This document shows, in pieces, positions 2,176 through 33,729 of a stretch of 64,000 nt of DNA. The notes under the pieces are model-generated. The model saw only the letters and a program-made list of their open reading frames with translations. It had not been told where the DNA came from and made no database searches. Positions within the stretch are counted from its first letter, which is position 1; each line of letters starts with the position of its first letter. The position numbers and the translations under genes were made by a program. This stretch comes from an uncultured Gemmatimonadales bacterium (lineage in GTDB: Bacteria; Gemmatimonadota; Gemmatimonadetes; Gemmatimonadales; Gemmatimonadaceae), in contig OY969695.1 in NCBI GenBank assembly GCA_963701965.1, positions 1,728,001-1,792,000 on the forward strand, given 5' to 3'.

Positions 2176-3564
2176 CTACTGGATAGGCGTGTGCGCCGGC
2201 GCGCCTTCAGGTCCCGTGTCCCAATGCTGCGCCGTCGAGACGTTCGGCATGCCCCAGGAGTGACCGTTCCATCCGTCGAAGCCGTCCATGAAGAACGCCC
2301 AGAATCCCGTGGACATGTCGCTGATGACGATGAGACCGTCGGCGTCGCGTACCTGAACGCCGAAGGCCCCGTTGGCGACGCCGTGGTCTCGCGGATCCTG
2401 GCTGGGATCGGCGATATACGCATCGGAGCAGCAGCCGGTCTCGTGACCGCCACTGAACGTATGGTAGGACGCCATCGTGTACGGGTCCGTCGGATCCAGC
2501 ATGTTGAAGACTTGGAGGCCATCCTCGTAGGCCGAGACGAACACGTACGGCCAGCGGACTTCGTGGTTGTGGGCGAGGTCGCGCCAGTCGGCCGTCCAGG
2601 CGCCGATGGGGTGCGAGATCGTTTGGACCTTCTTGTCGAGGCCCGGCTTCAAGTCGAAAATCCGGAGGGGCTCGTACTGCACCTCGGTCTCGGTGACCGC
2701 GTACCGGCCGTCGGGCGACGGCGTGATGGTATGGCCGGCCGTGATGCCCATGACGCCGGTGATGGATGTGACGAGCTTGGGTGACTCCGGTTGCGTGACG
2801 TCGAAGACGAAGTAGCCGCCGCGACCGGCACCATAGAACTTGTCCTGGTGCGTGGCGGGGTCGTACCCCACCCAATAGTCGTGGAACGACCCGACGATAC
2901 TTTGTGGGCCTTGGGCAAGGCGATCCGGATTTTGGATGCGGCCCACGAATCCGTTGTTCGGCGCGCCGGCCAGCAGCTTATCCATGTCAAAGATCTGCGC
3001 GTAGGACTTGGCGGACGTCGAGGCGAACATGAGGACGCGGCCGTCAGAGTGCTTGTACGTGAAGATGTTGTGAAAGCCGCCCGGCGCGTCCGTCTGATGA
3101 ATGCGCGCCACTTCTTTGATCTTGGTCGTGTCGGGAAGACCGGTGACATCGAAGACGATGGCGCCGAGGTCGGCGTCCGGCGAGCCCTGGTTGAACTGAA
3201 AGCACTGCACGAGGTAGTACTTGCCGTGGCTCTTGAAGTAGCGGGCCCGGAGCCCGCCCAAGCCCACGTGGAGCTCCGGGTTCTCAATGTTCCATTCATA
3301 CAAGACGCGAGGCTTCTCGCCTTTGGCGATGTCCTTCACGCTGATGATGGAGAAACCCGCCGGCTTGCTGACGCCGCGCGAGACGTAGACGTACGGACGC
3401 GAGAGCTCCTGTTCGATGTCGATGTCCGAGACCTGTAGATATCCCGCGAGCGGGACGTGACCGACGACATGGACGTTCGGCGTGCCCTCTTGTCCCGGCA
3501 GGGGCCGCCGGGTTTGGGCCAGGGCCAGGACAGGAATTGCGAGTCCGACAAGGAGCATTCTCAT
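2176..3564 (-). CDS. Secreted LVIVD-repeat-like beta-propeller protein (paralog B)
   Basis: Signal peptide MRMLLVGLAIPVLALAQ; blade motifs YVYVS, AIVFDVT, YFVFDVTQP, LRIFDL, LQVFNMLDP, LIVISD. Confidence 0.8.
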   Translation of the reverse strand: MRMLLVGLAIPVLALAQTRRPLPGQEGTPNVHVVGHVPLAGYLQVSDIDIEQELSRPYVYVSRGVSKPAGFSIISVKDIAKGEKPRVLYEWNIENPELHVGLGGLRARYFKSHGKYYLVQCFQFNQGSPDADLGAIVFDVTGLPDTTKIKEVARIHQTDAPGGFHNIFTYKHSDGRVLMFASTSAKSYAQIFDMDKLLAGAPNNGFVGRIQNPDRLAQGPQSIVGSFHDYWVGYDPATHQDKFYGAGRGGYFVFDVTQPESPKLVTSITGVMGITAGHTITPSPDGRYAVTETEVQYEPLRIFDLKPGLDKKVQTISHPIGAWTADWRDLAHNHEVRWPYVFVSAYEDGLQVFNMLDPTDPYTMASYHTFSGGHETGCCSDAYIADPSQDPRDHGVANGAFGVQVRDADGLIVISDMSTGFWAFFMDGFDGWNGHSWGMPNVSTAQHWDTGPEGAPAHTPIQ

Positions 3565-3569
3565 GGGGA

Positions 3570-5234
3570 CTATTTCGCCTCGACAGTGAGTGGCGCCATC
3601 ATGCCCGCCGCGACGTGCTCGCCAATGTGGCAGTGCAACATCCACGTGCCGGGATTCGTGAGATCCAACAGGAGGTCGACCGTCGATCCCACGGGGATGA
3701 TCGCGGTGTCCTTCCACACCAGATACGGATTGGGTTCGCCGTCGCGGGCAATGACGAGAAAGCGTTGGCCGTGCAGGTGCAACGGATGATCCATCGGGTG
3801 CAGCGACCGCGGGTCGTTGAACACGCGCAGCTTGATCACGGACCCCACGGGGAAGTGCCAGCCGATCTTCATGTTCTCGGCGCCTGTGCGCTGGTCGCGA
3901 ATGACCCACCGCACCTCTTTGCCCGTGGCCACCCAGTTCATGTCGGCCATGCCGTCCGTCCACTCGAGCGCCGGGCGAAAGAGCGTGTCGACGCTCATGA
4001 ACTGCATCACCGGGATCGGGAGATCGTGAATGTCCGTGGTGAGCACGATCTCTTCGTCGGGGGCTTTGTCGAATTGCGGGCGCAGGCGCTCGATGCTTCG
4101 CATCGTCACGCTGTCGGTGCGGAGCACGTCGAATGACGCCGGGCGAGCGACCGGCGGACCGCTGACATGAATGGAGCCGAGCGTGTCGACGTTGGCGGAG
4201 AATTCGCCGAGGAAGTGGTCGATCGTCTGGACCGCGTTCACGATGGCGATATCCCCTGGCTTATCGACGTGCGTTTCGACCACGTAGCGTTCGCCGGGGG
4301 CGATCACCACGCTGGGCACCATCACCTCATGAGCGTACGGCCCCTGGTCCGAGGCAATGAGCTTGAGCGGCGCGTCGCCCACGCTCAGGTTGTACGTGCG
4401 GGCGCTGGAGGCGTTCGTGATCAACAGGCGGACCACCTCGCCGGGCGCGGCGTCCAGGCGAACGCGCGGGCTGCCATTCACCAGCAAGACGTTCCCGAAG
4501 CGGCCCATGAGTGCGAAGTTCGGCGCGTCGAGACCGAATGGAACGACGCTATCGCCGTCGAGGAGCAGGTCGTTCAACATCAAGAACGCGGTGCGGGTGC
4601 CCGGCCCATTTTGATTTGCAGGCTCGACGTACAGGTTCCCGAACAGGCCCATCGGCTGACCGATATCCTCGCGGACGTGCTCGTGGTACCAGAAAATTCC
4701 CGCGTCGGGACAATGTACGGCGTACACGAACGTGCCACCGGCCCGGACCGGCGGCTGCGTCATGTCGGGCGACCCATCGAACCGGTTATCCAACCGGACC
4801 CCGTGCCAGTGAATGGTCGCGGGCAGATCGATGCCGTTGTGAAACCTCACGTAAAACGTCGCGCCTTGCGGCACCCGGAGCAGGGGGCCTGGCGACTGGC
4901 CGTTGAATGCGAACGTGGTCAGGGTGCGCCCGCCTACGGCGTGGCGCACGAATCCCGTCGCCAACGTGATCGTGTCTCCGTTCTTGATGCGCATCTCGGT
5001 GCTCGGCATCGCCGTAGGCGTCGCCAGAGGGGCGGTGCTGCTCTTGGGCACGTAGGCCTCGACCGCCGGACGCACGCCCTCGAGCCCGGGCATCATCGGG
5101 TTCTTCATCATGGGCACAATGGACCGGCCGCTCGGCGCCTCCAGGGTGTCCATCTTCTCCATTCCCGGCATCCCCGCCATGTCTTGACCAAAGGCCCTGA
5201 GTGGCAGCACGAGCAACAATGCGAAACGTTTCAC
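3570..5234 (-). CDS. Multicopper oxidase (three-domain, CueO/CopA/laccase-like), secreted
   Basis: Copper motifs IHWHG, WYHEH, HPLHLHG, HCHIGEHVAAGM; Met-rich N-terminus; GTG start overlaps upstream TGA. Confidence 0.93.
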   Translation of the reverse strand: MKRFALLLVLPLRAFGQDMAGMPGMEKMDTLEAPSGRSIVPMMKNPMMPGLEGVRPAVEAYVPKSSTAPLATPTAMPSTEMRIKNGDTITLATGFVRHAVGGRTLTTFAFNGQSPGPLLRVPQGATFYVRFHNGIDLPATIHWHGVRLDNRFDGSPDMTQPPVRAGGTFVYAVHCPDAGIFWYHEHVREDIGQPMGLFGNLYVEPANQNGPGTRTAFLMLNDLLLDGDSVVPFGLDAPNFALMGRFGNVLLVNGSPRVRLDAAPGEVVRLLITNASSARTYNLSVGDAPLKLIASDQGPYAHEVMVPSVVIAPGERYVVETHVDKPGDIAIVNAVQTIDHFLGEFSANVDTLGSIHVSGPPVARPASFDVLRTDSVTMRSIERLRPQFDKAPDEEIVLTTDIHDLPIPVMQFMSVDTLFRPALEWTDGMADMNWVATGKEVRWVIRDQRTGAENMKIGWHFPVGSVIKLRVFNDPRSLHPMDHPLHLHGQRFLVIARDGEPNPYLVWKDTAIIPVGSTVDLLLDLTNPGTWMLHCHIGEHVAAGMMAPLTVEAK

Positions 5235-5707
5235 TCCGGGGGCATGCCCGTGTTGTAGAAGGGATGACCCGCGAACGACTGCATGAGCGAGCTCGGGCTC
5301 CGACCCACAAGCACGATGGCACCGCGCCAATGCGCGCCTACGGGTGCGGGCTCCGCGCTCACGATCACGGTGAACTTGTTCCAGTCCGCCTTGGCGCGGA
5401 GCGGGGTGTCGTTGGTGATGGGGCCCAAGGAGCGGACGACCCCGAGGTTCGGCGTGGCGAGCCACGCGTGGTAGCTGGTGTACGCTCCCAACAATGCGGC
5501 CGGCGGCAAGTCGTGGACGTTGACATCGAGGTCATACACAATGTGCCCATCTTTACTCACGCCGATCACGAACGGCGACTGCGCCGGCGCCAGCTCGACC
5601 CAACCCGACGCCAGCGCCGCGGGTCCGGCCACCGCGAGCCGGAACCGTGGACGCGATCCCGGGAGAACGGCGATCGCGAGTGCGCCGGCCAGGGCGAGCG
5701 TCTTCAA
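5231..5707 (-). CDS. Small secreted hypothetical protein, resembling the RskA C-terminal domain
   Basis: TTG start overlaps upstream stop; signal peptide LKTLALAGALAIAVLPG; pattern YHAW..P..LG..F.VIVSAEP..G.IVLVG. Confidence 0.6.
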   Translation of the reverse strand: MKTLALAGALAIAVLPGSRPRFRLAVAGPAALASGWVELAPAQSPFVIGVSKDGHIVYDLDVNVHDLPPAALLGAYTSYHAWLATPNLGVVRSLGPITNDTPLRAKADWNKFTVIVSAEPAPVGAHWRGAIVLVGRSPSSLMQSFAGHPFYNTGMPPE

Positions 5708-7203
5708 TGTGCGCCCGTGCGCGTCGCGGTGGCGGTGGACTTGGGCGCAGTCTTGGGCACGCCTTCGGGGCCGTTCGCCCAATCCTGAGCGGTAGAGACG
5801 TTGGGCATGCCCCAGTTATGGCCGTTCCATCCGTCGAACCCATCCATGTGCAGCGCCCAGAACCCCGTCGGTGATGTCGCTGATCACGATCAGGCCGTCC
5901 TCGTTTCTGACCGCGATGCCCCAAGCGCCATTGAGCACGGTGCCCGTGCCGTGCCGCAGGCTGATCTCGGCGGTGTCCGGTCGGCCGGCTTGGCTGACCC
6001 CCGCCTCGGTCGGACCATCGTACGTCTTGTAGTACCCCACCGTCATCGGGCGCGTCGGATCCAGCATGTTGAAGATCTGCAGACCATCTTCGTAGGCCGA
6101 CACGAACACGTACGGCCACCGCACCTCGTGATTGTGCGGGAGATGCTTCCAGTTCGCGGTCCAGGCGCCGATCGGGTGCGTGATCGTGGGGACGGTGCCG
6201 TCCAAGCCGGGTCGCAGATCGAAGATGCGCAGCGGCGCGTACTGATACTCGGTCTCGGTGACCACGTAGCGGCCGTCGGGCGTCGGCGTGACCGTGTGCC
6301 CGCGGCCGAACGGCGAGAATATGGCGCCCGGAAGCGGCGTGATCGACGTGAGCAACTTCGGCGTCTCCGGCTTCGAGACATCGAACACGAAATAGCCGCC
6401 GGGCTGCGCGCCGCCATAGAACTTGTCTTGGTGCGTCGCGGGATCGTATTGGACGACGAAGTCGTGATAGCGGCCCGTCGCTCCCGGCACCGGCACGTGG
6501 CTAATGAATCCCTTGTCCGGCGCGCCCGCGAGAAACTTCCCGAGATCGAAGATGCTGGCGTACGTTCCGGTCAGCGTCGTGGTGAAGAGCAGCGTACGAC
6601 CGTCGGAGTGCCGGTACGGGAAGACGTTATGGAAGCCGCCGGGCAGCGAGCAGCCGGCCATGCCGCCGCACTGAGGATCGGAGCCTTTCGTGACCGCCGA
6701 GTTTGGGGCGGTAATCCGGCCGACCTCTTTAATAGTGGATGTGTCGGGCAGTCCGGTGACGTCGAAGATGATGGCGCCCAGGTCGGCATCCGGTGACCCC
6801 TGCGCGAACTGGAATCCCTGAACGTAGTAGTACCGTCCATGGTACTTGAACGTCTTGCCTTCCATCCCGCCGAAGCCCTGGTGCAGCTCGGGATCCGAAT
6901 GTGATAGTTGTACAGCACTTTCGCGTGCGCGGGATCCTTCACGCTGATGAGCGTGAATCCGGCCGGTGTGTGCGGGTCCAGCATCCGCGAGACATACACG
7001 TACGGTCGGCTCAGCTCCTGCTCCATGGCGATCCCGGAGATCGTCTGCGACCGGCCGAGGGGAATGTGCGACATCAAGTGCACGTTCGGCGTGTTCGGCA
7101 CGAACAACGGGCTGCCACTGTCGGCATCAAACGCGTGTTGCGCGTCGACGCGACCGGCGACGACGAACGCAATGAGCAGTGCGATGCGAGCGGCGCGTGG
7201 CAT
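5704..7203 (-). CDS. Secreted LVIVD-repeat-like beta-propeller protein (paralog A), two frameshifts (~6897, ~5870)
   Basis: Three ORF pieces join colinearly with paralog B (EQELSRPYVYVSR ... HNHEVRWPYVFVSAYEDG ... GFDGWNGH.WGMPNVSTAQ). Confidence 0.8.
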
Positions 7204-8570
7204 CACTGACCAGCCACCGGCTGGCATCCGGGCGGCGCGGGGTTCCGTGGAAGACACTCGGCCTGTGGGATCGGAAAGTGGGAGATGATCTTGAAGTTCG
7301 GGAGATCGCGCGGGAGTTGTAACAGCTTACCGTATCTCCGCCAATCGATCAATCGGTGCCCGCCCTCCCAGAACAGCGAGTACCGCTTCTCGTAGAGCAA
7401 TTCGTCCAGCAGGTTCCCGGTGAACGACCCGTCGAGTGGCGCCAGGCCGCCATCCTGCACCCGGATCACGTTGATGTCCGTCATCGCGGCAGCCGCGTGT
7501 CCGAGCCCAATGTTTGCTTCGGCACGGAGCAGGATCAGCTCCGCGTTCCGCACGATGGGGATTGGCGCCGTCGGACTGCCATACACGATGATCGACAGAT
7601 TGGAGGTGACACCCTCCAGCGTCCGCGGCGTGACGACCTTGACCTTGGCGGCGACCCGGAGATCGGGCGTCCCGTCCGCGCGGGACTGCGCGTCGGTCAC
7701 GAACGAGGGGTGGGCGTAGTACTGGGTGGCCGAGGGATCGAACAGGGGGTTGAGGGCGTCACCGGAGTTCGTGCTGTACACATGGTATGCGCCGAGGGTG
7801 AGCGGCGCGCTCGTCGAGACGAACGACGCCGCCAACGCGGTCAGCGCACCGGCGTAGTCGAGCTGATAAATGGCGACGCGCGCCCGGAGACCGCGATTGA
7901 CCTGCCGGAACGTGGCCGGTGTATCGAAACCGGCGAAGCCGGTGGTCAACGCGAACGGGAAGGCGGCGCCACCGGTCGCCAGCTTTGCGTCCGCATCATC
8001 GAGGAGTTTGGCGATACTGTCGAGCGCCTGGGGCGCGGTCTTGATGGGCGCCGGGGTGCCGGCCGGATCGCCATCCACCGCCATCGGGATGCCGGCCGAG
8101 TCACGCGCGTTCAGCACCTGCAGGAAGTCGTTGGCCTGGATCGTCTCGGCGAACCCCCGCGTGGCGTCCTTCTGCACATCGGTAAATCCCGGCACCTTCG
8201 CGACCGCGGCCAGCAGCAGGTTCGCCGAACGGATGTTCTTGTACGGGTTGCGCCACAGAAAGATGTCGCCGCCCAGACTGCCCGGGTCGATCGGCCCTAT
8301 GAGCAGCTCGCTGATGAATCGCGGCTCGTTGTTGCAGAGACAGTAGCCTTCGCGACCCAGCGTGCCGTCCATGAAAATGAAATTCGGCATCTCGGTCCGC
8401 GTCCCGAAGAGCAGACCCTGGGCGAGCGCTTTCACGGACGCGACGTTGGGCGCGCCGGTGACCGACTGTAGCGTGCTGTTGTTGAGATCGGGATTCGTGG
8501 GGTTCGTGCATCCGACCGCGACGGTCGCGAGCACCACCCACCGCCATGCGCCGACGTGATGTCTGGTCAT
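7203..8570 (-). CDS. SusD/RagB family outer-membrane lipoprotein
   Basis: Lipobox AVGC; motifs IVRNAELILLRAEA and YEKRYSLFWEGGHRLIDWRR; directly follows SusC. Confidence 0.93.
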   Translation of the reverse strand: MTRHHVGAWRWVVLATVAVGCTNPTNPDLNNSTLQSVTGAPNVASVKALAQGLLFGTRTEMPNFIFMDGTLGREGYCLCNNEPRFISELLIGPIDPGSLGGDIFLWRNPYKNIRSANLLLAAVAKVPGFTDVQKDATRGFAETIQANDFLQVLNARDSAGIPMAVDGDPAGTPAPIKTAPQALDSIAKLLDDADAKLATGGAAFPFALTTGFAGFDTPATFRQVNRGLRARVAIYQLDYAGALTALAASFVSTSAPLTLGAYHVYSTNSGDALNPLFDPSATQYYAHPSFVTDAQSRADGTPDLRVAAKVKVVTPRTLEGVTSNLSIIVYGSPTAPIPIVRNAELILLRAEANIGLGHAAAAMTDINVIRVQDGGLAPLDGSFTGNLLDELLYEKRYSLFWEGGHRLIDWRRYGKLLQLPRDLPNFKIISHFPIPQAECLPRNPAPPGCQPVAGQ

Positions 8571-8571
8571 G

Positions 8572-11500
8572 CTAGAACCCCGCGCTGATGCCGAGCCAGA
8601 AACTGCGGCTCGCCGGGAAGGCGAAAAGCTCGAAGTTCCGCGCGATCGGCTGGTTGCCAAAATGACTCACTTCCGGGTCCGTCCCGTCGTAGTGCGTGAA
8701 CGTCACGAGATTGCGGCCGCTGAACGTGAGCGCCATGTGGTGCGAGCCGCCGCCAATCCGGCTGAGCCACGCACTGGGCAGATCGAAGGTCACGTTGACC
8801 TCCCGCAGCTTCACGTAGGACGCGTCCTCGATGTAGGTGTTGGTGTGTCCCGGGAACTGCGAGAGCCGGTAGGCGCCCCGGTCCCACGTCACACCGTTCA
8901 CCACGATCTTGTCGGCATAATCGCGCGTAGTCTGCGCTTGATCGTACGTCAGCTTGGTGAAATTGATGTCGTCGCCGCCGTCCTTCCAACTGAACAGAAA
9001 TCCGAGGTGGAGCTTCCGGTACCGGAAGGTGTTCTGCAGGGACATGATGGCGCGCGGATTGAAGTCGCCCACCTGACCCACCACCACTTGGCCGTTCGGC
9101 AACGTCAGGTTGCCGACGATCTGCGTCGCCGACTTCCCCTGCTGGATCTCGTTCGTGCCGACGTCGGTGCCAAATCCCAGACCGACGAACGCCGGCACCG
9201 GGAGGTTCTCGATCACGCTGGCGTCATGGTACACCGACGCCGTGGCCGTCCAGTCGAAGTTGCGACCGGTGAATGGCGCCACCGTCAGGCCGACCTCGAT
9301 CCCGCGGTCGCGGAGCTGACCGCCGTTGAAGAACTGGGTCAGGAACCCGCTCGACGGGGACAGCGTACGCTGGAGGAGCAGATCGGTGATGTCCTTCTGA
9401 TAGAGCGTGAACTCGAGCGTCGCTTTCCCGCGGAACAGTTGGGCGTCGAATCCGGTCTCGATCTCCCGCTGGCGCTCGGGCTGGAGATTGGGCGCCAATG
9501 TGCTCGTGGTCGGCGCCAGACCCGGCAAGGCCTGGATATTCTCCGCGGCCAATAGCGTGAACTTCTGGCCAAAAAGCGGCCGATTGCCGGACTCGCCGTA
9601 GGCGGCGCGCAGCTTGAGCTCGTCAATGACGCCAGGAAGCACTGGGAAACGGTATGACGCCGCGGCCTTCGGGAAAAAGTAGAAGTGATTGAGCGCCGAA
9701 TTGGCGGTGCTCCGATCCACGCGGGCGCCGATCGTGAGGAGCAGGCGGTCGGACAGAGTCAGGAACTCCTCCTGGCCGAACAACCCCAGGTCTTGGATGT
9801 TCTCGTCATCCTCCGCCACCTGCACGACCGTCCCCGTCCCGACGTTGGGCAAGCCGCCGATCAGATTCTGGGCCAGGGTGCGCCCCACGTTGAGCGACGA
9901 GGCCTCGTCTTGAAATCCCAGCGTCGTCGTCATGCCGAACGCGCCGCTGCCCGGCTTGAACGAATGGATCGCGTAGGCGCCAACGTTGGCGTTGATATTG
10001 TTGCTCTTGGACAACGCCTTGAACCCCGGGAGCGCGCCGCTGGCCTCGAACTGCAGCTCGGGCGGCGCGAAGACGTCATTGGTCTGATTGAAGAAGTCGA
10101 CGCCGCCCGTTCCCACGATCTTCACGGACTGCGTCGCGGTCTCGAGCAGGGTCCAGTCCGCGGTCAGCGAGGCGACGTCGCGCCACACCTCCTCTTCATT
10201 GTGGAGGAGGGCGGCCGTCTGCACGGGATTGCTCGGCGCGAACGGATTGGTCGGATAGGCGCCGTTCTTCGGCGACAAGTCGAAGAAGCTGGGCGTGAAG
10301 GGAAGCACGGCATAAAAGACAGCGCCAATGTTGTCGTTGTTGCTCAGGCCGCGACCCGTGTTCGAGTGGATCAGTTGGTTGCCGCCCGACAAATGCAGCC
10401 GCGTGCCGACCTCGTGATCCAGATTGAGCCGGACGGAGGATTTGTTGTAGAACGTGTTCTGGATGATGCCGGGGTCGCGGTTCACCATGCCCGAGGCATA
10501 GAACTGCGTGTTGTCCGTGCCTCCGCTCACGCTCAGCATCGTCTCCGACGACAGCGGCTTCCGGCCGGCCAGCGCGCTCTCGTTGTCGAACACGGCGCCG
10601 GGGTGAAAGTACTGGGCGGCGATCGGCCCGAATGCCGAATCGGCTTCTTGCACGTTGGCGAACGTGCGCGAGCCCAGCTCGCGCGAGATCTCCGAGATCC
10701 CGAAGTTCTGCTGCACGTCGTAGCGCGCGGCCCCCGCCTTGCCCCGCTTCGTCGTGATGACGATCACGCCGTTCGATGCCTTGGAGCCGTACACGGCCGC
10801 CGCCGACGCGCCCTTCAGCACCTCGATATTTTCGATGTCCGCCGGATCGATGTCGGCAATGCGATTGGTCGGGTTGTCCTCGTTGCCCGCAATACCCTGC
10901 CGCGGCGACGCCAGTGTCAGCAGATTCGTCGCCGGCTCGATCGAGGCGTCGCTGACGATGACCCCGTCCACGACGTAGAGCGGCGTAGCCGAGCCGATGA
11001 CGGACGTGATGCCGCGCAGGCGGATCTGCATGCCGCCCCCGGGAGCCCCGGTATTCGACGAGATGTCGGCGCCCGTGACCTTGCCTTGCAGTGCCAGATC
11101 GACGCTCTGGGCCGGCGCCTGATTCAACTCGTCGCTATTGACGGTGGCCACGGCGTTGGCGGCGTTGCGGCGCGCCACGGTGGTCGCCTGGCTGGTGACG
11201 ACGACTTCGTTCAGGTGCAGGACGTCGCGCACCAGCCGGATCTCGATCGTGGTCTGCGCGGCATCAATGGCGATCTCACGGGCCAGGTACCCGATGAGTC
11301 GGGACTGGATCGTGAAGGCGCCGCTGGGCGCCCGCAGCACGAAGCTCCCGTCGGCCTTGGTGTGGGCGCCGAACGTCGTGCCTTTGACCACCACGTCCGC
11401 CGACTGTAAGGGTTCGCCCGACGCATCGTCGAGCACGTGCCCGGTCAGCGTGCGCTCCTGCGCTTCGCGCATGGGCACCGGCGGCTCGGCGCGCGGGGCG

Positions 11501-20650: not shown

Positions 20651-22642
20651 CGCGGCCGACGCCACCCGCCGAGCTGACCGCCCGCGCGCTGCTGCTCGGG
20701 GCGTTCCTCGGGATCGTGTTCGGCCTCGTCACGGTGTACGTCGCGCTGGAGGTGGGACTCAACTTCAGCGCCTCGATCCCGATCGCGGTCCTCTCCATCA
20801 CCGTCTTCCGGCGCCTGGGACACGGGTCGGTGTTGGAGAAGAACATGGTCCAGACGGTGGGGTCGGCCGGCGAGTCGATCGCGGCCGGTATCGTCTACAC
20901 CATGCCGGCGCTCCTCTTCCTCGGTTACCAACTCGAGCTGTGGCGCATTTTTTGGCTGGCCCTCGTTGGCGGCATTCTCGGCGTGCTGTTCATGGTGCCG
21001 CTCCGGGAACATCTCGTCGTCAAAGAGCACGGCCGGCTGATCTACCCCGAGGGCACGGCGTGCGCCGACATTCTCATCTCCGGAGAGCGCGGAGGCGCGT
21101 TCGCCCGACAGGTCTTCCTAGGCCTGGCCGTCGGCGCCGGCTACAAGTTCGCCATGAGCGGCCTGCGGTTGTGGCGCTCGTCGCTCGACTGGACGCTGAG
21201 TGGACTCCGCGGTGCGGTGCTCAGTCTCGACCTGGCACCCGAGCTCTTGGGGATAGGCTGCCTGATCGGACTCCCCGTCGCCCGCGTCATCTTCGCGGGC
21301 TCGGTCATGTCGGGCATCGTGCTCATCCCGCTGATCTACTTTTTCGGCGAGCAGCTGACGGGCCCCATCTACCCTTCGTCCGTGCCGATCGACCAGAATG
21401 GCCCCGGGCGACATCTGGTCGAGTTACCTGCGGTATGTCGGCGCCGGAGCGGTCATCGCCGGCGGCGCGCTGCTCCTGTTTGGCGCGCTGCCGACCGTCG
21501 TCGCATCGCTGCGCGGTCTGCGCGCGTCGCGTACGACCGATACGGCCAATGCATCGCGGGACCTGTCGCCCCGCACCGTAATCGGCGGGGCGGTGCTCAT
21601 GTTGGGCGCGCTCTACGCGCTGCTCTCCATCGCCATCAATCCGGGGGGCCAAGCCAATCTGCTGTCGACGCTCCTGGTCGCGGTGTTCGGCTTCTTCTTC
21701 GTCGTCGTGTCCGCGCGGATCACCGGTCTCATGGGATCGTCCGCCAATCCGATCTCAGGAATCACGATCGCCGTCATCATGCTGACCTGCCTCCTCTTCG
21801 TCTCGTCGGGTTGGGTCGGCGGGACCTACGAGATCATCGCGATCAGCATCGGCGCCGTGGTCTGCGTCGCGGCGTCGAACGCCGGCACGACGGCGCAGGA
21901 TCTCAAGACGGGGTACCTAGTGGGCGCGTCCCCGCGACGCCAGCAGATCGGCCTCGTAGTCGGCGTGCTGACGTCGGTGCTCTGCATCGGCTACACCTTG
22001 ACGTGGCTCAACGGGCACGCCGCTCCGGTCTCCGTCGCCGCCACCGCGCTCCCCAGCGATAGCCGATTGGTCGAGACCGGGATGCGATTCCAGGGCGGCA
22101 CGTACGACGTCTACGCCGTCCGCACGGGCAGCGGCATGCCGGCCGGGCGGTACCTCGTGACGCCTGGCGATCGGCGGACGGCGTTCCGGGAGACACAACG
22201 CATCGGGTCCGCGCAACTCCCGGCGCCGCAGGCTCAGGTCATGGCGATCCTGGTCGACGGGCTCCTCAATCATCGGATGCGCTGGCGTCTCTTGCTCGTC
22301 GGCATCGTGATCGCGTTGGTTCTGGAGCTGGCCGGTGTCCGGTCCCTGCCCTTCGCCGTCGGGATGTATCTCCCGCTGTCGGCGACAACGACCCTGCTGG
22401 TCGGCGCCCTCATCGGGCGCCTCGCCAAATCCGGAGAGTCGGGCACGTTGTACAGCTCCGGGTTGATCGCCGGTGGCGCCATGAGCGCCATCGGAATCGC
22501 GGTCGCATCGAGCATGGGACTGCTGGATCGATTCGACTTGGGCAGCCGGCTCGGGCTCTCCTTCCTCCAATCGCCGATCTGGGCGCTGGCGACGTTCGTG
22601 GCGCTCTCGGGAATCCTCTGGCGCGAGAGCCGGTCCCGCTAG
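20647..22642 (+). CDS. OPT family oligopeptide transporter, frameshift at ~21396
   Basis: SASIPIAVLS, QTVGSAGES, YPEGTACA, NPISG, AQDLKTG, APQA, PFAVGMYLP across two frames. Confidence 0.9.
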
Positions 22643-23361
22643 ACCTGCGCCCGGTGGTAGATCCTGAGCTCCGGAATGATCGTGTCCGGATCCTGCTTGA
22701 TACAAAAGACGACGGCCGCTGCGACAGGCCGGGGATCGAGCCAGTCCAACCCGAGGTGCCACACTTCGGACTCCTCGGCCATCGGCGTCAGGATCATCCC
22801 TGGCGTCAGGGCGGTCACCCGGATGCGCGTTTTCTTGAGATCCTTGGCCACCGACTCGGAGAACCCGAGGATGCCCCACTTCGACGCACAGTAGGCCGAG
22901 CTGTCCTCTTCACCCTTTTTGCCCGATCCGGACGAGATGAAGATGATGGTACCGTCGCCGCGCGCGCGCATGTCCTGGACGAGGGCCTCGCGCGTACAGA
23001 GAAAGTGACCCTTGAGGTTGGCGTCGTGGATGCGGTCCCACATCGCTGTCGACGTCTCCCAAATGGGAGCGACCTGGCGAATACCGGCGTTGTTCACCAG
23101 GACGTCGAGCCGGCCCCAGCGGGCGATCACATCACGCGTGAAGGATTGCACCGCGCGCTCGTTCCCAATGTCGGCCGCGAACGCCAGCGTCTCGACGCCG
23201 CGCTCGCGCCCGATGGCCGCCATCCGGGCCGCCAGCTCCTCGCGCTTGACGTCGACACCGGCCACGCGCACGCCTTCCTGCGCCAGGGCGTCGGCGATCT
23301 CGGCGCCGAGCCCGCGGGCCGCGCCCGTCACGATCGCCGTCTTGCCCGCGAGATCAGACAT
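22639..23361 (-). CDS. Short-chain dehydrogenase/reductase
   Basis: TGAARGLG, NNAG, YCASK. Confidence 0.9.
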   Translation of the reverse strand: MSDLAGKTAIVTGAARGLGAEIADALAQEGVRVAGVDVKREELAARMAAIGRERGVETLAFAADIGNERAVQSFTRDVIARWGRLDVLVNNAGIRQVAPIWETSTAMWDRIHDANLKGHFLCTREALVQDMRARGDGTIIFISSGSGKKGEEDSSAYCASKWGILGFSESVAKDLKKTRIRVTALTPGMILTPMAEESEVWHLGLDWLDPRPVAAAVVFCIKQDPDTIIPELRIYHRAQV

Positions 23362-23737
23362 GCTTGTTGGCCTTCTCGGTGTCGAAGTACTCGCGCACCC
23401 AGTAGATCTTGCCGTCCTTGATCTCAATGAAGAACGCGCCGGTGTTGCTGTAGTTCTTCCCGGTCTTCGGCTTGAGATGGCTCCGCCACTCGATCATGAC
23501 CGTTGAGTGCTTGGGATCTTCATCGAGATGGACGACCTCGAAGCGCACCTCGTGGAACGCGGGAAACACGCGCTGGCGAAAATAGTCAGCGATCTTCGCG
23601 TTGCCTTCGAGATCGACACCGAAATCGGATCCGGGCGCCGAATGCTTGGCCTGGGAATGCAACAAGGGCTGCAGTTGGTCGGCACTCATTGTATTGTAGC
23701 AATCGACCATCTGTCGCACGAGATCGACATTGGACAT
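23354..23737 (-). CDS. SnoaL/NTF2-like protein
   Basis: 127 aa ending DGKIYWVREYFDT; RBS AGGAG. Confidence 0.85.
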   Translation of the reverse strand: MSNVDLVRQMVDCYNTMSADQLQPLLHSQAKHSAPGSDFGVDLEGNAKIADYFRQRVFPAFHEVRFEVVHLDEDPKHSTVMIEWRSHLKPKTGKNYSNTGAFFIEIKDGKIYWVREYFDTEKANKHV

Positions 23738-23768
23738 GCTCCTGCTCTCCTGGCTACGGGGTTGATGC

Positions 23769-24155
23769 TCAGTCGGGTACGACGGCGGTCACTTCGATCT
23801 CCACCCGCGCGCCATCCTCAATGAGACCGGCGACCTGCACGGCGGTCATCGCGGGATAGTGGCGGCCGATGATCTCGCGATAGATGGTGCCGATCTCCCG
23901 GTGGGCGCGCACATATTCGTTCTTGTCGATCATGTACCATGTCATGCGGACAATGTGCGACGGTTGGGCGCCGCCTTCCGCCAGAATGGCCACGATGTTC
24001 TCGAGCGCCCGCCGCGTCTGCGCCGCGAACCCGTCGGCGAGTTGCCCGGCTCGATCCCATCCGATCATGCCGCTGACGAACACCGTGCGACCTTTGGCGA
24101 CCATGCCAAAGGCGTAGCCCTTGGGCCGCGGCCAACCCGGCAGCTCAATCCGCAT
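23769..24155 (-). CDS. RidA/YjgF family protein
   Basis: GWPRPKGY, FVSGMIG, YPAMT, VEIEVTA. Confidence 0.9.
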   Translation of the reverse strand: MRIELPGWPRPKGYAFGMVAKGRTVFVSGMIGWDRAGQLADGFAAQTRRALENIVAILAEGGAQPSHIVRMTWYMIDKNEYVRAHREIGTIYREIIGRHYPAMTAVQVAGLIEDGARVEIEVTAVVPD

Positions 24156-24573
24156 GGAACACCGCCAGGCGCGCGCGCAGGTCGGCGGGAATCGGCGAGG
24201 GCCGCTTCGTGGCGGCATCGGTCAGCACGAGCACCGAATTCCCGCGGACGCGCTCCCCGCCATCCGGTCCCGATAGCACGATCGCCAGACCCACGGAGCT
24301 CGTGCCAATGCGCCGCACCGCGAGCGTGGCCGTGAGCACATCACCGAGCATGCTGGGCGCCACGAAGTCCACATCGAGATGCACGGTCGGCAGGCCCCAT
24401 CCCCGCTGCTGATGAATCTCGGCGAACGAGACGCCGAGCTCGTCCCGGCACCAATCTTCGACGAGATTGTTGAACATCTCCAGATACCGCGGGAAGAAGA
24501 CGATGCCGGCCGGATCGCAATGGGCGAAACGCACTAGAATGTCCGCGCGATAGACGCGGCCTCGCTCAGCCAC
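24145..24573 (-). CDS. 4-hydroxybenzoyl-CoA thioesterase family acyl-CoA thioesterase
   Basis: [17 protein letters not shown] hotdog-fold motif. Confidence 0.9.
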
Positions 24574-25717
24574 GGGGACCCTCGCTGTCCTGGAATGCCT
24601 TGATGATGCCGCGCGCGATGATCAACTGCTGGACCTCGGTCGCGCCCTCGTAAATGCGGAGCGGCCGGATCTCGCGGTAGAGTCGCTCCACCGGTTGATC
24701 GCGCACCACGCCGAGGCCCCCGAACATCTGCAGCGCCGCATCGATCACCTGTTGGGCGGTCTCGGTGGCGGTCATCTTGGCCATCGCCGCTTCGACCGTG
24801 ACGCCGCGACCCATGTCGCGCTGCCACGCGGCGCGGTACGTGAGGAGCGCCGCGGCGTCGACGCCGGTGGCCATGTCCGCCAGCTTGGCTTGGGTCAGCT
24901 GAAAATCAGCCAGCGTCTGGCCGAAGAGGGTTCTGGTGGTCGCGCGCCGGAGCGCCTCATATAACGCACGCCGCGCGAATCCCACCGCCGCGGCGGCGAC
25001 CGACGTGCGAAACACGTCGAGCGTCGCCATGGCGACCTTGAATCCTTGCCCGGGCGCCCCAATGACCTGCGCCGCGTCGACTCGACAGTCGGTGAAAACC
25101 AGCCGCGCCAACGGATGTGGCGCCATGACCTGGATCCGCTCCCCGGCGTTGAAGCCGGGGGTGCCGGCTTCGACCACAAAGGCGGTGATGCCTCTCGCGC
25201 CGGGCGCTTCACCGGTCCGGGCGAACACGACGTAGAAATCGGCGATGCCGCCGTTCGAGATCCACGTCTTCTCGCCATTGAGCACGTACGCATCGCCCTC
25301 CCGGCGTGCGGCGCACTGCAGCGCGGCGACATCCGATCCGGCCGCCGGCTCCGACAGCGCGAATGCCGCAATGGCATCGCCGGTGCCGGCGCGGGCGGCA
25401 TATCGCTGCTTCTGGGTCTCGCTGCCGAACAGCGTGATGGCGCCGGAGCCGAGTCCTTGCATCGCGAACGCGAAGTCCGCCAGGCCCGAATGAAACGCCA
25501 GCGTTTCGCGGATGAGGCACACCGCGCGGGTGTCGATGCGCTCGCCGACCGCGTGGGCCAACCAACCGGCATCGCCGAGCGCGCGCACCAGCGCACGACA
25601 GGCGGCATCGACGTCGGCGTCGTGGTCTGGCGTCACGTGGGTGGTGGCCCACGCGTCGCAATCGGTCACTACGGTCTGGTGGCGTGGCTCGAAGAACGGC
25701 CACGCCGAGATGGTCAT
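24566..25717 (-). CDS. Acyl-CoA dehydrogenase
   Basis: [38 protein letters not shown]. Confidence 0.95.
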
Positions 25718-25729
25718 GGCGGTCCACGG

Positions 25730-26587
25730 TCAGTTGCCTTCGAACACCGGCTTCTGTTTGGCGACGAACGCATGATAGGCGCGATGGAAATCGTTCGTCG
25801 CCATGCAGATCGCCTGGGCCTGCGCTTCGGCCTCGATGGCCTCATCGACGCCCATGTTCCATTCTTGCTGCAACATGCGCTTGGTCATCCCGTGCGCGAA
25901 CGTGGGGCCGGATGCCAACGTCTCGGCCAGCGCCCGCGCGTCGGCCAGCAGCGACTCGGGAGCACACAGGCGATTGAGGAACCCCCACCGCTCGGCCTCC
26001 TCGCCGCCCACGCTGCGGCCCGTGAACAGCAACTCGGCCGCCCGCCCCTGGCCGACGACCCGTGGCAGCAGGGCGCACGCGCCCATGTCACATCCGGCCA
26101 ATCCCACCCGCGTGAAGAGAAACGCCGTCTTGCTGCGCGCCGTGCCGAGCCGGAGATCCGAAGCCAGCGCCAACAGCGCCCCCGCGCCCATGCACACGCC
26201 GTCAATGGCGGCGATGATTGGTTGGGGACAGGCGCGCATTGCCCGCACCACATCGCCCGTCATCCGGGTGAACGCCAACAAGCCGGGCATATCGAGAACG
26301 GTGAGCGGACCAATGATCTCGTGCACATCGCCGCCCGAGCAGAAATTCTCTCCCGCGCCCGTGATGACGATGGCCTTGATATCCTCGGCGGCGACCATCG
26401 CCCGGAACAGGTCGCGGAGCTCGGCGTAGGCGTCGAACGTCAATGGGTTCTTCCGCTCCGGCCGGTCCAGCGTGATCGTCGCCAACGCGCGCTCGACGGC
26501 GAACCCGACGTGCTGGCCATTGTAATCGGCGAGGCGGCTCCGATGGCCCGGCAAGTGATGGGACTCGCCCGGGAGATATCGCATCAT
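25730..26587 (-). CDS. Enoyl-CoA hydratase/isomerase family protein
   Basis: [29 protein letters not shown]. Confidence 0.93.
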
Positions 26588-27072
26588 GTGACCAATCCGA
26601 CTTTGAGTTTGCGCAGCATGCCGAGCATCGCCTGCTTCTCATCCTGGCTGAGACCGGCCATGAGCTCAATGATCCATTCCTCATGGTGGGACGCCATCTC
26701 GCGGAATCGCTTGAGGCCCGCCCGCGTGAGCTTGACGGTCACCGCGCGCCGATCGCTCTGCTCCAACGTGCGAACGACCAACCCTTCCCGCTCGAGCTGG
26801 TCCGTGATGCCGGTGACGTTGCCACCGGAGACCATGAGGCGCTGGGACAGCTCGGACATGCGGAGCCCGTCGGGATGCCGCTCCAGCTGCGCCAGGAGAT
26901 CGAATCGGGGAAGCGTCGTCTCGAATCGCTCCCGCAACCGCGTCCGGACCCGACCCTCGATGCGCATGGTGCAGGAGAGCAACCGCAACCAGAGCCGCAG
27001 GGCCTGATGGTCGTCGGGCGTGGCGCGCGTCTCCAGGTCGACCAAGTCGACCTCGGTGGCTCTCGCTCTCAT
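26584..27072 (-). CDS. MarR family transcriptional regulator
   Basis: [36 protein letters not shown] wing motif. Confidence 0.93.
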
Positions 27073-27779
27073 GTCACCTCGCCCCCGGCCACCGGGATCG
27101 CCTGCCCGGTGATCGCTTCGCTGCCCGGGGCGCACAGCCAGGCCACGGCGTTCGCCACTTCCTCGGGCTGCACGAACCGGCGCTGCGGGTTGCGCGCGAC
27201 CAGCTCGGCCGCGGCCTGCTCCGCCGTGCGCCCGGTCCGGGCGACGATCGTCGCCACGGCGTCCCGCATCATGTCTGTTTCCGTGTATCCGGGACACACG
27301 GCATTGACGGTGATGCCCGACGTGGCCACCTCCAACGCCAACGCCCGGGTCATCCCGATGACGGCGTGCTTCGCGGCACAATACGCCGACACATACCGGT
27401 ACCCGACCAGGCCCGCGGTACTGGCAATCGTCACGATCCGCCCCCAGCGCGCCGCCAGCATACCGGGCAACGCCGCCTGCGTGCAGTAGAACGCGCCGTC
27501 GAGATTCACGGCCATCGTCTCGCGCCACAGCGCGCGATCGGTGGTCGCGAAGGACGCCGAGCGGGTGCCGCCGGCATTGTTCACCAAGATGTCGACGGGG
27601 CCGATGGCTTCGAACATCCGCGCGACGGCGTCCGGGTCCGTGACATCGGCCTGGACAAATGCCTTGGCGCGGATCGGAGTCCGTCCGGCGACCGTGACAT
27701 CGACGCCAAGCGCGCGCAGCGCGCTGGCGACGGCCGCGCCAATGCCGCGGGTGCCCCCTGTTACCAGAGCACGTCTCAT
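27069..27779 (-). CDS. SDR (3-hydroxyacyl-CoA dehydrogenase-like) of the anthraniloyl-CoA cluster
   Basis: [25 protein letters not shown]. Confidence 0.9.
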
Positions 27780-30064
27780 GGTTGGAGAGCCAGCTGCGCG
27801 GCGCGGGCCATGTTGCGCTCCAGCTGCTCCTTCCCATTGAGATAGGGATCGGGCCACCAGACATTGGCGTAGGCCTGTTTCGCGGCCTCGTGCAACGTCC
27901 ACGCCGGATCGGCCAGGTGGGGGCGGGCCACCGCGCACAGATCGGCGCGTCCCGCGGCGATGATCGTGTTCACGTGATCGCCGTCGAAGATATTGCCGAC
28001 CGCAATGGTCGCGATGCCGGCTTCGTTGCGGATCCGGTCGGCGAGTGGCACCTGGAACATGCGGCCGTAGACCGGTCGCTCGGCCTTGCTCACCTGCCCC
28101 GACGAACAGTCGATCACATCGGCGCCCGCCGCCTTGAACAATCGCGCGATCTCCACCGCGTCCTCGGGCGTGACGCCGCCGGATACCCAATCATGGGCCG
28201 AGATGCGGACACTCATGGGCTTGTCGTGCGGCCAGACATCGCGCATGGCGCCAAACACCGCCAGCGGATACCGGCACCGGTCGCGCAGTGACCCGCCGTA
28301 TTCGTCCGTCCGCTGGTTGGTCAACGGCGAGATGAAGCTGGACAACAGATAGCCGTGCGCGCAGTGCAGCTCCAGCCAGTCGAATCCCGCGGCCGCCCCG
28401 CGCCGCGTCGCGGCCACAAACTCCCCGAGGATGCGGTCCAAGTCCTCCCGCGTGGCTTCGCGCGGCACGGCGGAGACGCCGGCAATGTAGGGCAATGGAG
28501 ACGCTGATACGAGGGGCCAGTTGCCGTCCTCGAGCGGCTGATCGATCCCCTCCCAACCGCGGCGGGTCGATCCTTTGCGACCGGAGTGACCGAGCTGCAA
28601 CGCGATCGCGGCGTCGGTCTCCCGATGCACGAAGTCGACGATCCGGGTCCAGGCGTCCTGTTGTGGTGCGTTCCAGAGTCCGAGGCACCCGGGCGTGATG
28701 CGTCCCTCGGGTGACACACAGGTCATCTCGGTAAACACCATTGCGGCCCCACCCATGGCCCGCGCGCCAAAATGGACGAGATGAAAATCGTTCGGCATCC
28801 CGTCCGTGGCCCGATAGGTCGCCATGGGAGAGACCAACACGCGGTTCTTGAGCGCTACGCCGCGGAGCCGGTACGGCGTGAACATCGGCGGACGGACGTC
28901 GCTCACGCCACTGCGCTCGGCAAACCACCGCTCAATGCCGGCCACGTACCCCGCATCCCGGACTTTGAGATTCTGATGCCCAATGCGCTGGCTGCCAGTG
29001 AGCAAACTGTACGTGAATTGCTCGGGGTCGAGATGCACGTACCGCTCGACCTGCTCGAACCATTCCATGCGGTTGCGGGCGGCAGCCTGGAGCTTGAGCG
29101 CTTCGACTTCGCGTTCGGCTTGATAGCGCCCGAGCGCCGCCGACACATCGCCCTCGTGACACGACAGAACGCGGGCCAGCGCGATCGCGTCCTCCATGGC
29201 CAGCTTGGTCCCGGACCCGATGCTGAAATGCGCCGTGTGCGCGGCGTCGCCGATCAGCACGATATTCCCGTGGTACCACTTCTCGCACAGCACGCGATTG
29301 AACGCCAGCCAAGCGGTGGACCCCCGCCGATGCCGGGCGTTGGAGATGAGGGCGTGGCCGTCGAGGCGATCGGCGAACAGCTGCTCGCAGAACGCGACGG
29401 ACGATTCGGTGTCCATCGTATCGAGACCGGCGGCCTTCCAATTCTGCTCCGGCGTCTCGACAATGAATGTCGACCAATCCTCGGCGAACCGATAGGCGTG
29501 GAGATTGAACCAGCCCCACGGCGTCTCGCGAAAATCGAACGTGAAGGCGTCGAGCTTCTGTCGGCTTCCCAGCCAGATGAACCGATTCTGTCGGACCTGG
29601 ATGTTGGGGCGAAACACATCCTCGTACGTCTTCCGCGTGATCAATGCCACGCCGTCGGACGCGATCACCAGGTCGTATTCCGACGCATACCGGGCCGTGT
29701 CGACGACCTCGGTCTCGAATTTCAGACGGACGCCGAGATCGGCGGCGCGCTGCTGCATGATCTGCAGCAACGTGAGGCGGGCGATGCCGCAGAAGCCGTG
29801 GCCGCCGGAGGTGACGGTGCGCCCCCGAAAATGGACATCAATGTCATCCCAATGCCGGAACGCGCGGGTGATCGCCTCGTGCGTCTCGGGGTCGGCGACG
29901 CGGAAACCATCCATCGTCTGGTCGGAGAACACGACACCCCAACCGAACGTGTCGTCGGGTCGATTCCGCTCGACCACGGTCACGTCCCACGAGGGGTTGG
30001 CTTTCTTCGCCAGGATCGAGAAGTACAATCCGGCCGGACCGCCGCCCAGACACACGATTTTCAT
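27776..30064 (-). CDS. abmA: Anthraniloyl-CoA (2-aminobenzoyl-CoA) monooxygenase/reductase, same family as bifunctional salicylyl-CoA 5-hydroxylase
   Basis: FAD monooxygenase half ([34 protein letters not shown]) fused to an Old Yellow Enzyme half ([16 protein letters not shown]). Confidence 0.9.
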
Positions 30065-31549
30065 GCCAGCACCTTGAGGACGGCTTCGCCAAGCTTGGCG
30101 CCCGTGTCGTCGGCCAACGCCGCCTCGCGCAGCGTCCGCACGCGACCGGCCGCGTCGCTCTTCCCTTGGAGCTGCCCGATCGCGCCGATCACGGTGTCGA
30201 AGTTCCGGGTACCGCGGCAATGGGTGTCCCCATAGCCTTTGACCACACGCGCGCACTCCGCGACCTCGACGGCCAACGCATAGTCCACTGGTGCCAACGA
30301 CGCGATCCGCGCCAACCACGCGGCAATGCGCTCCCGCTCCCGTTGAAACCGCAGGGACGCGCGCCGCCATGGCCGCAAGCTCGCCACGACATAGAGTTGC
30401 ACATATCCGCTGAGGGATGTGGTCTCGAGGACCGTCCCTTTGCGCGTGATCCGTCCGATCGCCTTCGTGGCCCAGCGGCTGTTGTGCAACCACCGTCCGA
30501 GTCCGGTCGGCATGACGTCCGCCAGCTCGTCGATGCCGGGATGCAGGAACTCGTTGATGCGCACCACCTGGTGCGCTCCCGCCCTGGCCTCCTGCTGGAC
30601 CCGGTCGAACCGCGTCCGCCGAATCTTGAGATCGGCCACCCGGATCGCGTCCTCGTAGGTCATCCACAGCGCCAGATATCGCGCGGTCTCCCGGAGCAGG
30701 GCGAACTCCCCGCGGCCGTACCGCGCATCCGCCTCGCGCACCGGATCCAGCCGATCCAAATACTCGGCCGCGTACCGCTCGTCCTGATAGTCGGCGAGAC
30801 GCGGCACCGCGGTCAGGAGGATCTCGTGACTCGCCGCCGGAAAGGTCCGTTCGACTCTCCCGACCAGTTCCCGTATCCTGGGCCCGGCCTTGGCCTGCGC
30901 TGGCGAGGGACCGGCCGCCGCATCGGGCCGCGACGCCGAGTCGAATCCCGCCGCGAACGCCGCGCGGCTCGACTTGACCCCGACACCGCCGCGCTCAATG
31001 GCCTCCTCGTACTGCTGGCGCGTGAACGGCAGCGCGCTGCGTTGCCGCCAGGGCGCCCAGGAGCACAGCGCTGATGACGCTGCCGGCCCGCTCCGCCACC
31101 CGCGCGAAATCCCGGGCCACCAACACGCGCGCCGCTCCTTGGGCCGCCGCCAGCAGGGCCGCCGCGTCGACCCGCCCGTCGCCGCTATCCGTGCGCTCGG
31201 TCATCGAATACACGCGATGCGTGGACGCGATGAGCGTCGTGCGATCGGGCGTGACGAGCCCCCGCTGCACGGCGCGTCCGGCCTCCATCAACTCCGATGC
31301 GATGACGACGTCGAGCTCGCCGGGCACGGGCATGAGCGCCAACACCGGCTCTTTGCCCGCCGCTCTCGCCTCGGCCTCCGGGAAAATCTCCAGATAATAG
31401 ATGGTGGTGCCGGTGCGCTGCGCCACGCCCGGCACGGACGTGGTCTGGGCATAGTAGCCCGCGTGTTCGGCGACATCGACGATCCAGTCGGCGAGTACGC
31501 CGCCGCCTTCCCCGCCCATCGCCAGAATGGCGACCGTCGTGGCTCTCAC
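30061..31549 (-). CDS. iorB: Indolepyruvate:ferredoxin oxidoreductase beta-family subunit (long form), frameshift at ~31040
   Basis: AMGGEGGG, QTTSVPGVAQRTG, then LADYQD, MTYEDAIRVA, KGYGDT. Confidence 0.85.
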
Positions 31550-31552
31550 GCG

Positions 31553-33688: not shown

Positions 33689-33696
33689 GGTTGGTC

Positions 33697-33729
33697 AATC
33701 TGGGTAGTGATACTTTAAATGTCAAGCAT
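33697..33729 (-). promoter_or_regulatory. Internal sigma70-type promoter with overlapping imperfect palindrome (putative MarR operator)
   Basis: Minus strand TTGACA-17nt-CAGATT-8nt-ATG(iorA); ATGCTTGA-CATT-TAAAGTAT overlaps the -35; AT-rich stretch in high-GC DNA. Confidence 0.65.

Follow-up and report, generated by a model that had tools for sequence, protein, structure and literature searches.

A 64,000-nucleotide stretch of contig OY969695.1 (assembly GCA_963701965.1, positions 1,728,001 to 1,792,000) from an uncultured Gemmatimonadales bacterium, called here the window, carries two paralogous genes, A and B, that lie on either side of genes for a small exported protein (P3) and a multicopper oxidase. 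Both paralogs are predicted to be exported propellers, and a ring of four His and one Glu within them very probably forms a metal site of some kind. We tentatively favour the view that A and B are periplasmic two-metal hydrolases whose loops set the substrate, that they are supplied by a SusCD system and that the oxidase is a service shared between them. This view was built from sequence comparisons and a predicted structure.

As stated in a preliminary description of this DNA, the two paralogs share a series of motifs and carry different Cys inserts, and every one of these was confirmed in the sequence. B contains GGFHN (162-166), FHD (227-229), GHTITP (277-282), ETEVQY (292-297), HNHEVRW (332-338) and GCCSD (377-381). 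A contains GGFHN, YHD, GHTVTP, ETEYQY and HNHEVRW, with CGGMAGC immediately ahead of GGFHN. A and B were 58% identical over 350 aligned residues. An AlphaFold2 model of B was built on 111 aligned sequences and showed a seven-bladed propeller with 28 strands in 7 blades (predicted local distance difference test, pLDDT, 90; predicted TM score, pTM, 0.91); the best structural matches of this model were 7-bladed propellers. The model placed H165, H228, H278 and H332 where the inner strand of blades 3, 4, 5 and 6 begins or just ahead of that point, which is the register of successive blade starts that had been proposed for them. Judged from this register and the rules of propeller architecture rather than from coordinates, the four His would share one face near the propeller axis.

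Among the 120 best homologs, H165 was conserved in 120, H228 in 119, H278 in 117 and H332 in 120. A family set of 171 distinct sequences, each covering at least 330 model positions, was taken from 91 loci (76 public loci and 15 stretches from relative genomes), with frameshifted and partial copies filtered out. All four ring His were present in 164 of the 171 members, and conservation of this extent is well beyond chance. Other residues conserved in this set were H99 (152), E292 (144), E294 (151), H334 (138) and E335 (165), and Met stood at the blade-2 ring position in 84 sequences. The preliminary description had proposed a multi-His candidate metal site and had named conservation of the His across homologs as a check on it; the joint conservation of the four His and their blade register support this candidate site.

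His-poor relatives also came up when 50%-identity representatives were searched. Sixteen of them, chosen by eye as full-length and His-poor, matched B at 7 of 78 ligand positions and at 261 of 272 structural positions; as they were selected on absent His, the comparison is informative in two respects, namely that Glu294 has gone as well and that the scaffold is intact. The difference between the two counts indicates that the ligands were lost as a set. An alternative that we consider very unlikely treats the His as structural blade-start residues without a metal role, A as a decaying pseudogene and the Cys loops as incidental. The retained fold of the His-poor relatives is what it would predict, but ligand positions that vanish together while structural ones stay are not, and the ring residues coincide with the known ligand positions of a solved enzyme, Sb-PTE, as described below. 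The two frameshifts in A and the lack of Cys in loop 6-7 of 107 of the 171 sequences, which also agree with this alternative, are treated with the paralogs themselves. The fold and the Trp-rich tail were retained in His-poor proteins P0126, P0127, P0140, P0144, P0151 and others, and in those at L104:3207, L107:3480 and L101:3774. In Rhodothermales and Bacteroidetes records, some His-poor relatives stand first in tandem arrays whose other paralogs are His-complete. That the His-poor relatives form a single clade was not borne out, as they were spread over several groups.

B as a single query gave no PDB match by sequence search. The family profile had one match in PDB, Sb-PTE (5HRM/5IOJ), a haloalkylphosphorus hydrolase or phosphotriesterase, at E 0.002. 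A second profile was made from nine LVIVD-type proteins, comprising three of the propeller family including B, two archaeal proteins, three LVIVD proteins of the same genome and one choice-of-anchor B domain; it matched Sb-PTE at E 1.1e-12, and the next match was at E 0.25. The title of a paper cited in PMC11656708 describes Sb-PTE of Sphingobium sp. TCM1 as having a binuclear centre in a seven-bladed propeller. By residue counting in the 5IOJ alignments, Glu or His lay exactly at positions 201, 258, 317, 389, 407 and 475, at successive blade starts. We take the metal of Sb-PTE to be Mn and its ligands to be the bridging E201, H258, H317, H389, E407 and H475. Since local HMMER pieces paired blades out of order, the mapping started from the last blade, for which the alignment is direct, and was counted backwards. 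By this blade order, and with the ligand roles that we presume, five of the six Sb-PTE ligand positions are retained in B (Table 1) and the position of the bridging Glu is not. Positions 101-105, with which E201 aligns, are G, a variable residue, G, G/A and M/L; E/D97, upstream of positions 99-105, is a possible substitute for the bridging Glu. In a Foldseek search with the B model, 5HRM ranked sixth (TM 0.40) and was the only non-WD40 enzyme among the matches listed. The fact that Sb-PTE is the sole solved relative, the five ligand positions kept in B and the loss of the ligands as a set count in favour of the hydrolase reading.

Nitrous oxide reductase (NosZ) and pyrroloquinoline quinone (PQQ) dehydrogenases had been suggested as models for the site. 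Both give way to the binuclear hydrolase Sb-PTE as the only sequence relative in PDB. PDB sequence searches and Pfam/NCBIfam scans returned no NosZ or PQQ-dehydrogenase entry. SBP56 (PF05694) gave no match for A or B, and 2ECE was found only at E 0.55 with the nine-protein profile. NosZ, SBP56 and carotenoid oxygenases were absent among the structural matches listed, which were filled by WD40 proteins. NosZ joins a propeller with CuZ to a C-terminal CuA cupredoxin domain; in the B model, blade 7 is not followed by a further domain, and neither A nor B has a cupredoxin domain; no mauG or nos accessory genes were seen in the window.

The propellers had also been described as LVIVD-like. Either paralog alone gave no match to Pfam LVIVD (PF08309) at E 0.1, and in this respect the description did not hold; it holds at the profile level, where 7 of the 9 members of the wider alignment matched PF08309 at E 0.1, and in the shared His ring. 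The choice-of-anchor B model TIGR04312 gave 23.1 bits (E 4e-5) and did not reach its cut-off of 100. ESM Atlas neighbours of the propeller were LVIVD clusters. The four His and Glu294 were invariant in all nine aligned LVIVD-type proteins, which came from archaea, Pseudoalteromonas and the same genome. This invariance indicates that the ring belongs to the LVIVD/choice-of-anchor B superfamily as a whole. In the alignments, the features particular to the A/B family are H99, E292, H334, E335 and the Trp-rich tail. In Pseudoalteromonas, a choice-of-anchor B gene whose product shares the His ring lies divergent to the copper genes mbnP and mbnH (L117:762-5434); for a link of choice-of-anchor B to mbnPH, only one further record was found, from the same species.

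In the mechanism that we favour, A and B would be exported seven-bladed propellers whose His-Glu ring would bind two metal ions and hydrolyse a small imported substrate, each paralog probably acting on a different one. Because the place of the bridging Glu is a Gly-rich stretch, another residue would be needed to complete the site, and H99, E97, E292 or E335 would replace the Glu. The pocket would be shaped by the two long variable loops that lie on the His face; Cys pairs would form disulfides in the periplasm and hold these loops in place, and Arg106 of B would supply an anion-binding group. The substrate would enter through SusCD, and induction of the operon would fall to the sigma/FecR pair. 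In its weakest step, the P3-oxidase would set the oxidation state of the metal for loading or would oxidise the released product; that it would be a shared service is suggested by its one to three copies alongside up to 25 or more propellers.

The oxidase has all four copper motifs (HWHG, WYHEH, HPLHLHG and HCHIGEHVAAGM), and its Cu-oxidase_3, Cu-oxidase and Cu-oxidase_2 domains were all over the Pfam cut-off. Its N-terminus is Met-rich, as in most of 47 copies, and has no twin-Arg motif. Its best PDB relatives were 4F7K (E 8.5e-47), a Thermus laccase (E 7.8e-44) and CueO (E 1e-32). P3, with one near-invariant His, was predicted to fold as a beta-sandwich; it gave no Foldseek match at E 0.001, and none of 38 aligned copies reached the cut-off of a Pfam family. 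A weak match to RskA_C (E 0.07) and a lead from Atlas (0.84) were seen. At other loci P3 is fused to the N-terminus of the oxidase. A C-terminal His of P3 was tried as a mark of propeller-linked copies and rejected, as many fused copies have His there.

The link between propeller and oxidase was followed in 151 genomes of the phylum, which are kin and not independent and thus give a pattern, not a statistic. The propeller was found in 42 and P3 in 70. P3 was present in all 42 propeller genomes, which supports the functional tie to the neighbouring oxidase that had been suggested earlier, and it lay within 4.5 kb of a propeller in 40 of the 42, only some positions having been entered in this count for two genomes with at least 25 propeller copies. 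In the 28 genomes with P3 and no propeller, 27 P3 matches were in frames of at least 579 residues, and all 8 of these frames that were examined were P3-oxidase fusions. Such fusions in genomes without the propeller indicate that P3 is a domain of the oxidase that has been split off in most propeller operons. Genomes G061 and G144 have at least 25 propeller paralogs each and only 1 and 3 P3 matches. The propeller homolog search gave 2780 matches, with source names that point to Gemmatimonadota; the family and the same partners were also found in records of Rhodothermales and Bacteroidetes.

It is possible that copper is the propeller metal. In an alternative that we regard as somewhat unlikely, the ring would be a copper site and the propellers would be copper-dependent oxidases or oxygenases, much like methanethiol oxidase, that receive their metal from the Met-rich oxidase and P3. 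The strict one-way dependence of the propeller on the P3-oxidase is better explained in this way than by hydrolysis, and the Met-rich N-terminus found in most oxidase copies is consistent with it; however, P3 is not a dedicated propeller chaperone, since just one His in it is near-invariant and propeller-free genomes carry it as part of the oxidase. At the ring itself, the additional H99 and H334 and the lost bridging Glu make a more His-rich site, and Met is frequent at the blade-2 position, but the carboxylates E292, E294 and E335 are conserved. Among distant relatives, one choice-of-anchor B gene lies beside mbnP/mbnH, whereas the solved relative is a hydrolase, presumably with Mn, and SBP56 was reached only at E 0.55 by profile. 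Judged from its residues, a site of four His and one Glu is suited to Mn, Fe or Zn at least as well as to Cu.

The neighbours of the propeller were counted at the 76 public loci, which have flanks of up to 8 kb, many of them shortened, and include several loci per genome. P3 was found at 39 loci, the oxidase at 38, SusC at 10 and SusD at 7. Two propeller-linked SusC proteins were 52% identical to each other, against about 38% or less for the other full-length SusC proteins of the genome; one propeller-linked SusC of the same genome was only 38% identical. This recurrent SusCD subgroup, together with a sigma/FecR operon head that resembles those of siderophore uptake, is consistent with an unlikely alternative in which the propellers are non-enzymatic periplasmic binders of a metal or metal chelate that is imported by SusCD and passed to the oxidase, with the loops selecting the chelate. 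The SusC at 38% identity and the scarcity of SusC near the propellers argue against binding. Large tandem expansions with variable loops (at least 25 copies in 2 of the 42 genomes) and the persistence of several His-poor lineages, some heading arrays, would also agree with binders, but the ring matches the catalytic site of the sole solved relative.

Several results weigh against the hydrolase reading. A plain hydrolase leaves the strict link to the oxidase unexplained, since the same ring occurs in other LVIVD-type proteins and Sb-PTE, to our knowledge, functions without such an oxidase. No acidic residue was among the commonest at positions 99-105 of the 171 sequences, where a counterpart of E201 would lie. 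The Foldseek match of B to 5HRM was modest, and in a wide structural search the best 50 matches were all generic propellers (Z 29-31), 5HRM not being among them. At the public loci, P3 was not found within up to 8 kb at 37 of 76, many of these being tandem arrays or short contigs, and SusC was within the flanks at only 10. An S9 peptidase and a putative esterase downstream of a paralogous locus in the same genome were counted in favour of hydrolysis.

Conservation across the family was high in the Trp-rich tail (0.81) and ranged from 0.52 to 0.81 in the blades, and the lowest values were those of loops 3-4 and 6-7 (0.31 and 0.30). The low value of loop 6-7 and the different Cys inserts of A and B agree with the paralog-specific variable loops reported earlier, and it is a fair inference from the sequences that A and B differ in specificity. 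Both Cys inserts are in blade-joining loops on the His face. Of the 171 sequences, 3 had CC, 3 an A-type pair and 49 C-x-C, and loop 6-7 had at least two Cys in 64 and none in 107; Cys pairs as family-wide ligands were ruled out by this census. The pairs were stable inside their subfamilies. GCC was found in 31 of the 120 best homologs, and Arg106, at the start of blade 2, in 31 of these 31; the usual residue at position 106 is Asp (120 of 171). Two of the 31 CC proteins had lost ring ligands. The A-type Cys pair was found in four database proteins and at three loci, and A-type proteins formed one supported group in FastTree (4/4, support 0.99 without loop columns). CC proteins formed one group of 15 with the loop columns and two groups, of 4 and 11, without them. 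On this distribution the Cys pairs are badges of subfamilies outside the core site. The preliminary description had compared the vicinal Cys-Cys of B with the active-site disulfide of PQQ dehydrogenases. The restriction of Cys pairs to small subfamilies and the two CC proteins without ring ligands make a catalytic disulfide of that type unlikely, and the best interpretation of the several unrelated Cys spacings, in proteins that are exported, is disulfides that hold long loops in place.

A and B had been presented as a pair of paralogs. B is intact, but A is not one open frame, as two single-base frameshifts had been missed. Compared with an intact ortholog, exactly one base is missing in A near 6895 and one is extra near 5870. 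Silent codon differences exceeded replacement differences in each of the three segments of A (33/9, 116/47 and 12/8), and among 28 further genes of the one-contig assembly that were tested, 4 were likewise split over frames. Both observations suggest that the frameshifts in A are probably assembly errors rather than decay, and A orthologs at loci L021, L042 and L062 are intact. These results argue against the pseudogene that would accompany structural His.

Table 1. Genes and residues of the propeller operon, by position in the window
Feature	Position	Strand	Remarks
ECF (extracytoplasmic function) sigma factor, first gene of operon	12904..13539	-	
FecR-type anti-sigma factor	11895..12872	-	
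SusC-type TonB-dependent transporter	8572..11898	-	N-terminal STN match weak
SusD/RagB-type lipoprotein	7203..8570	-	stop overlaps start of propeller A
Propeller A gene	5704..7203	-	three frames, two single-base indels
A insert CGGMAGC (C-x5-C)	6650..6670	-	loop between blades 2 and 3, just ahead of first ring His
P3, small exported beta-sandwich protein (predicted fold)	5231..5707	-	158 residues; without family name
Three-domain multicopper oxidase	3570..5234	-	554 residues
Propeller B gene	2176..3564	-	462 residues, intact; 7 predicted blades and Trp-rich C-terminal tail
B His99, loop 1-2	3268..3270	-	family-specific candidate extra ligand; 152/171
B His165, blade 3	3070..3072	-	Sb-PTE His258 by blade order
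B His228, blade 4	2881..2883	-	Sb-PTE His317 by blade order
B His278, blade 5	2731..2733	-	Sb-PTE His389 by blade order
B Glu294, end of second strand of blade 5	2683..2685	-	Sb-PTE Glu407 by blade order
B His332, blade 6	2569..2571	-	Sb-PTE His475 by blade order; H334 and E335, both family-specific, come after it
B vicinal Cys378-Cys379	2428..2433	-	variable loop between blades 6 and 7

The genes in Table 1 are arranged head to tail in the order ECF sigma, FecR, SusC, SusD, A, P3, oxidase and B, and from FecR through B the stops and starts overlap or are a few bases apart. The N-terminus of B is signal-peptide-like (ALA-Q, judged by eye). The C-terminus of the ECF sigma open reading frame appears, by eye, to be frameshifted after region 4. 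Signals found in a promoter and terminator scan were no better than chance. The order A-P3-oxidase-B was found again at loci L021, L042, L054 and L062; at L062 only a 64-residue SusD remnant precedes A. Upstream of this cassette, both in another genome at L062:3-3796 and in the window at 13602-20650, are an amidohydrolase, a class V aminotransferase-like gene, a cupin and an amino-acid permease. Back to back at G000:C1:1980000-2005000 (L022, L023), the genome of the window has two further operons of the type SusC-SusD-P3-oxidase-propeller together with a P3-oxidase fusion; a cupin (oxalate decarboxylase-like by eye) lies between the operons, and the esterase and S9 peptidase are downstream. 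A sixth propeller-P3-oxidase locus with many frameshifts is at G000:C1:470000-474000 (L025). Elsewhere in the window, a 387-residue Na+/H+ antiporter gene on the plus strand at 1009-2172 is without the middle of the membrane domain (the best Pfam stretch is model positions 261-374), and an intact paralog of 580 residues is at 34526-36265 on the minus strand. A long minus-strand operon at 22642-34507 has a flavin monooxygenase/NADH-oxidase fusion and, by eye, acyl-CoA dehydrogenase, enoyl-CoA hydratase, indolepyruvate oxidoreductase and cyclase genes; it is probably for aromatic catabolism. The genome encodes a selenocysteine tRNA at G000:C1:354852-354948.

The propeller family has thousands of members and a fixed oxidase partner, and 42 of the 151 genomes sampled from a largely uncultured phylum have it. 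A passage of PMC2447325 describes LVIVD repeats as cell-surface repeats. It is conceivable, though doubtful, that the oxidase with its partner domain matures a novel type of His-rich (copper or mixed-valence) dinuclear site in an undescribed periplasmic system, built on a propeller enzyme family of Gemmatimonadota and Rhodothermales, which swaps of disulfide-pinned loops diversify. If true, such an oxidase-matured site would give LVIVD/choice-of-anchor B proteins a first natural function, as metalloenzymes. The one solved relative, Sb-PTE, acts on man-made phosphate triesters. The cassette A-P3-oxidase-B, with four genes, is compact; expressing it in full would put the metal, the reaction and what the oxidase does within direct experimental reach. 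In titles and the starts of abstracts, with subscription papers mostly outside coverage, no description of the propeller family, the operon or an LVIVD metal site was found, and 'choice-of-anchor B' matched 0 papers. The site seems to be of a known kind, here in an undescribed propeller-oxidase system.

Compared with known systems, B resembles Sb-PTE in its seven blades, in His at four successive blade starts and in the Glu of blade 5. They differ in sequence (13% identity) and at the position of the bridging Glu201, which is not acidic in B; unlike Sb-PTE, B and its kin have the extra H99, E292, H334 and E335, a Trp-rich tail and a fixed link to a multicopper oxidase. LVIVD (PF08309) and choice-of-anchor B (TIGR04312) proteins have the same ring of four His and one Glu, whereas A and B fall below the cut-offs of these models, are single domains with their own tail and belong to a dedicated operon. 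SBP56/methanethiol oxidase and NosZ are propellers with a His-bound metal near the axis, and the likeness of A and B to them lies in the propeller fold and a candidate site of this kind. PQQ dehydrogenases recall B in the vicinal Cys-Cys, which in B lies on a loop of the His face; however, they have eight blades, and B has seven and no PQQ Pfam match. The oxidase is like CueO and Thermus laccases in its three domains, full copper motifs and Met-rich segment, and unlike them in the N-terminal P3 beta-sandwich, either fused or encoded by a separate gene, in the lack of a twin-Arg signal and in its link to the propellers.

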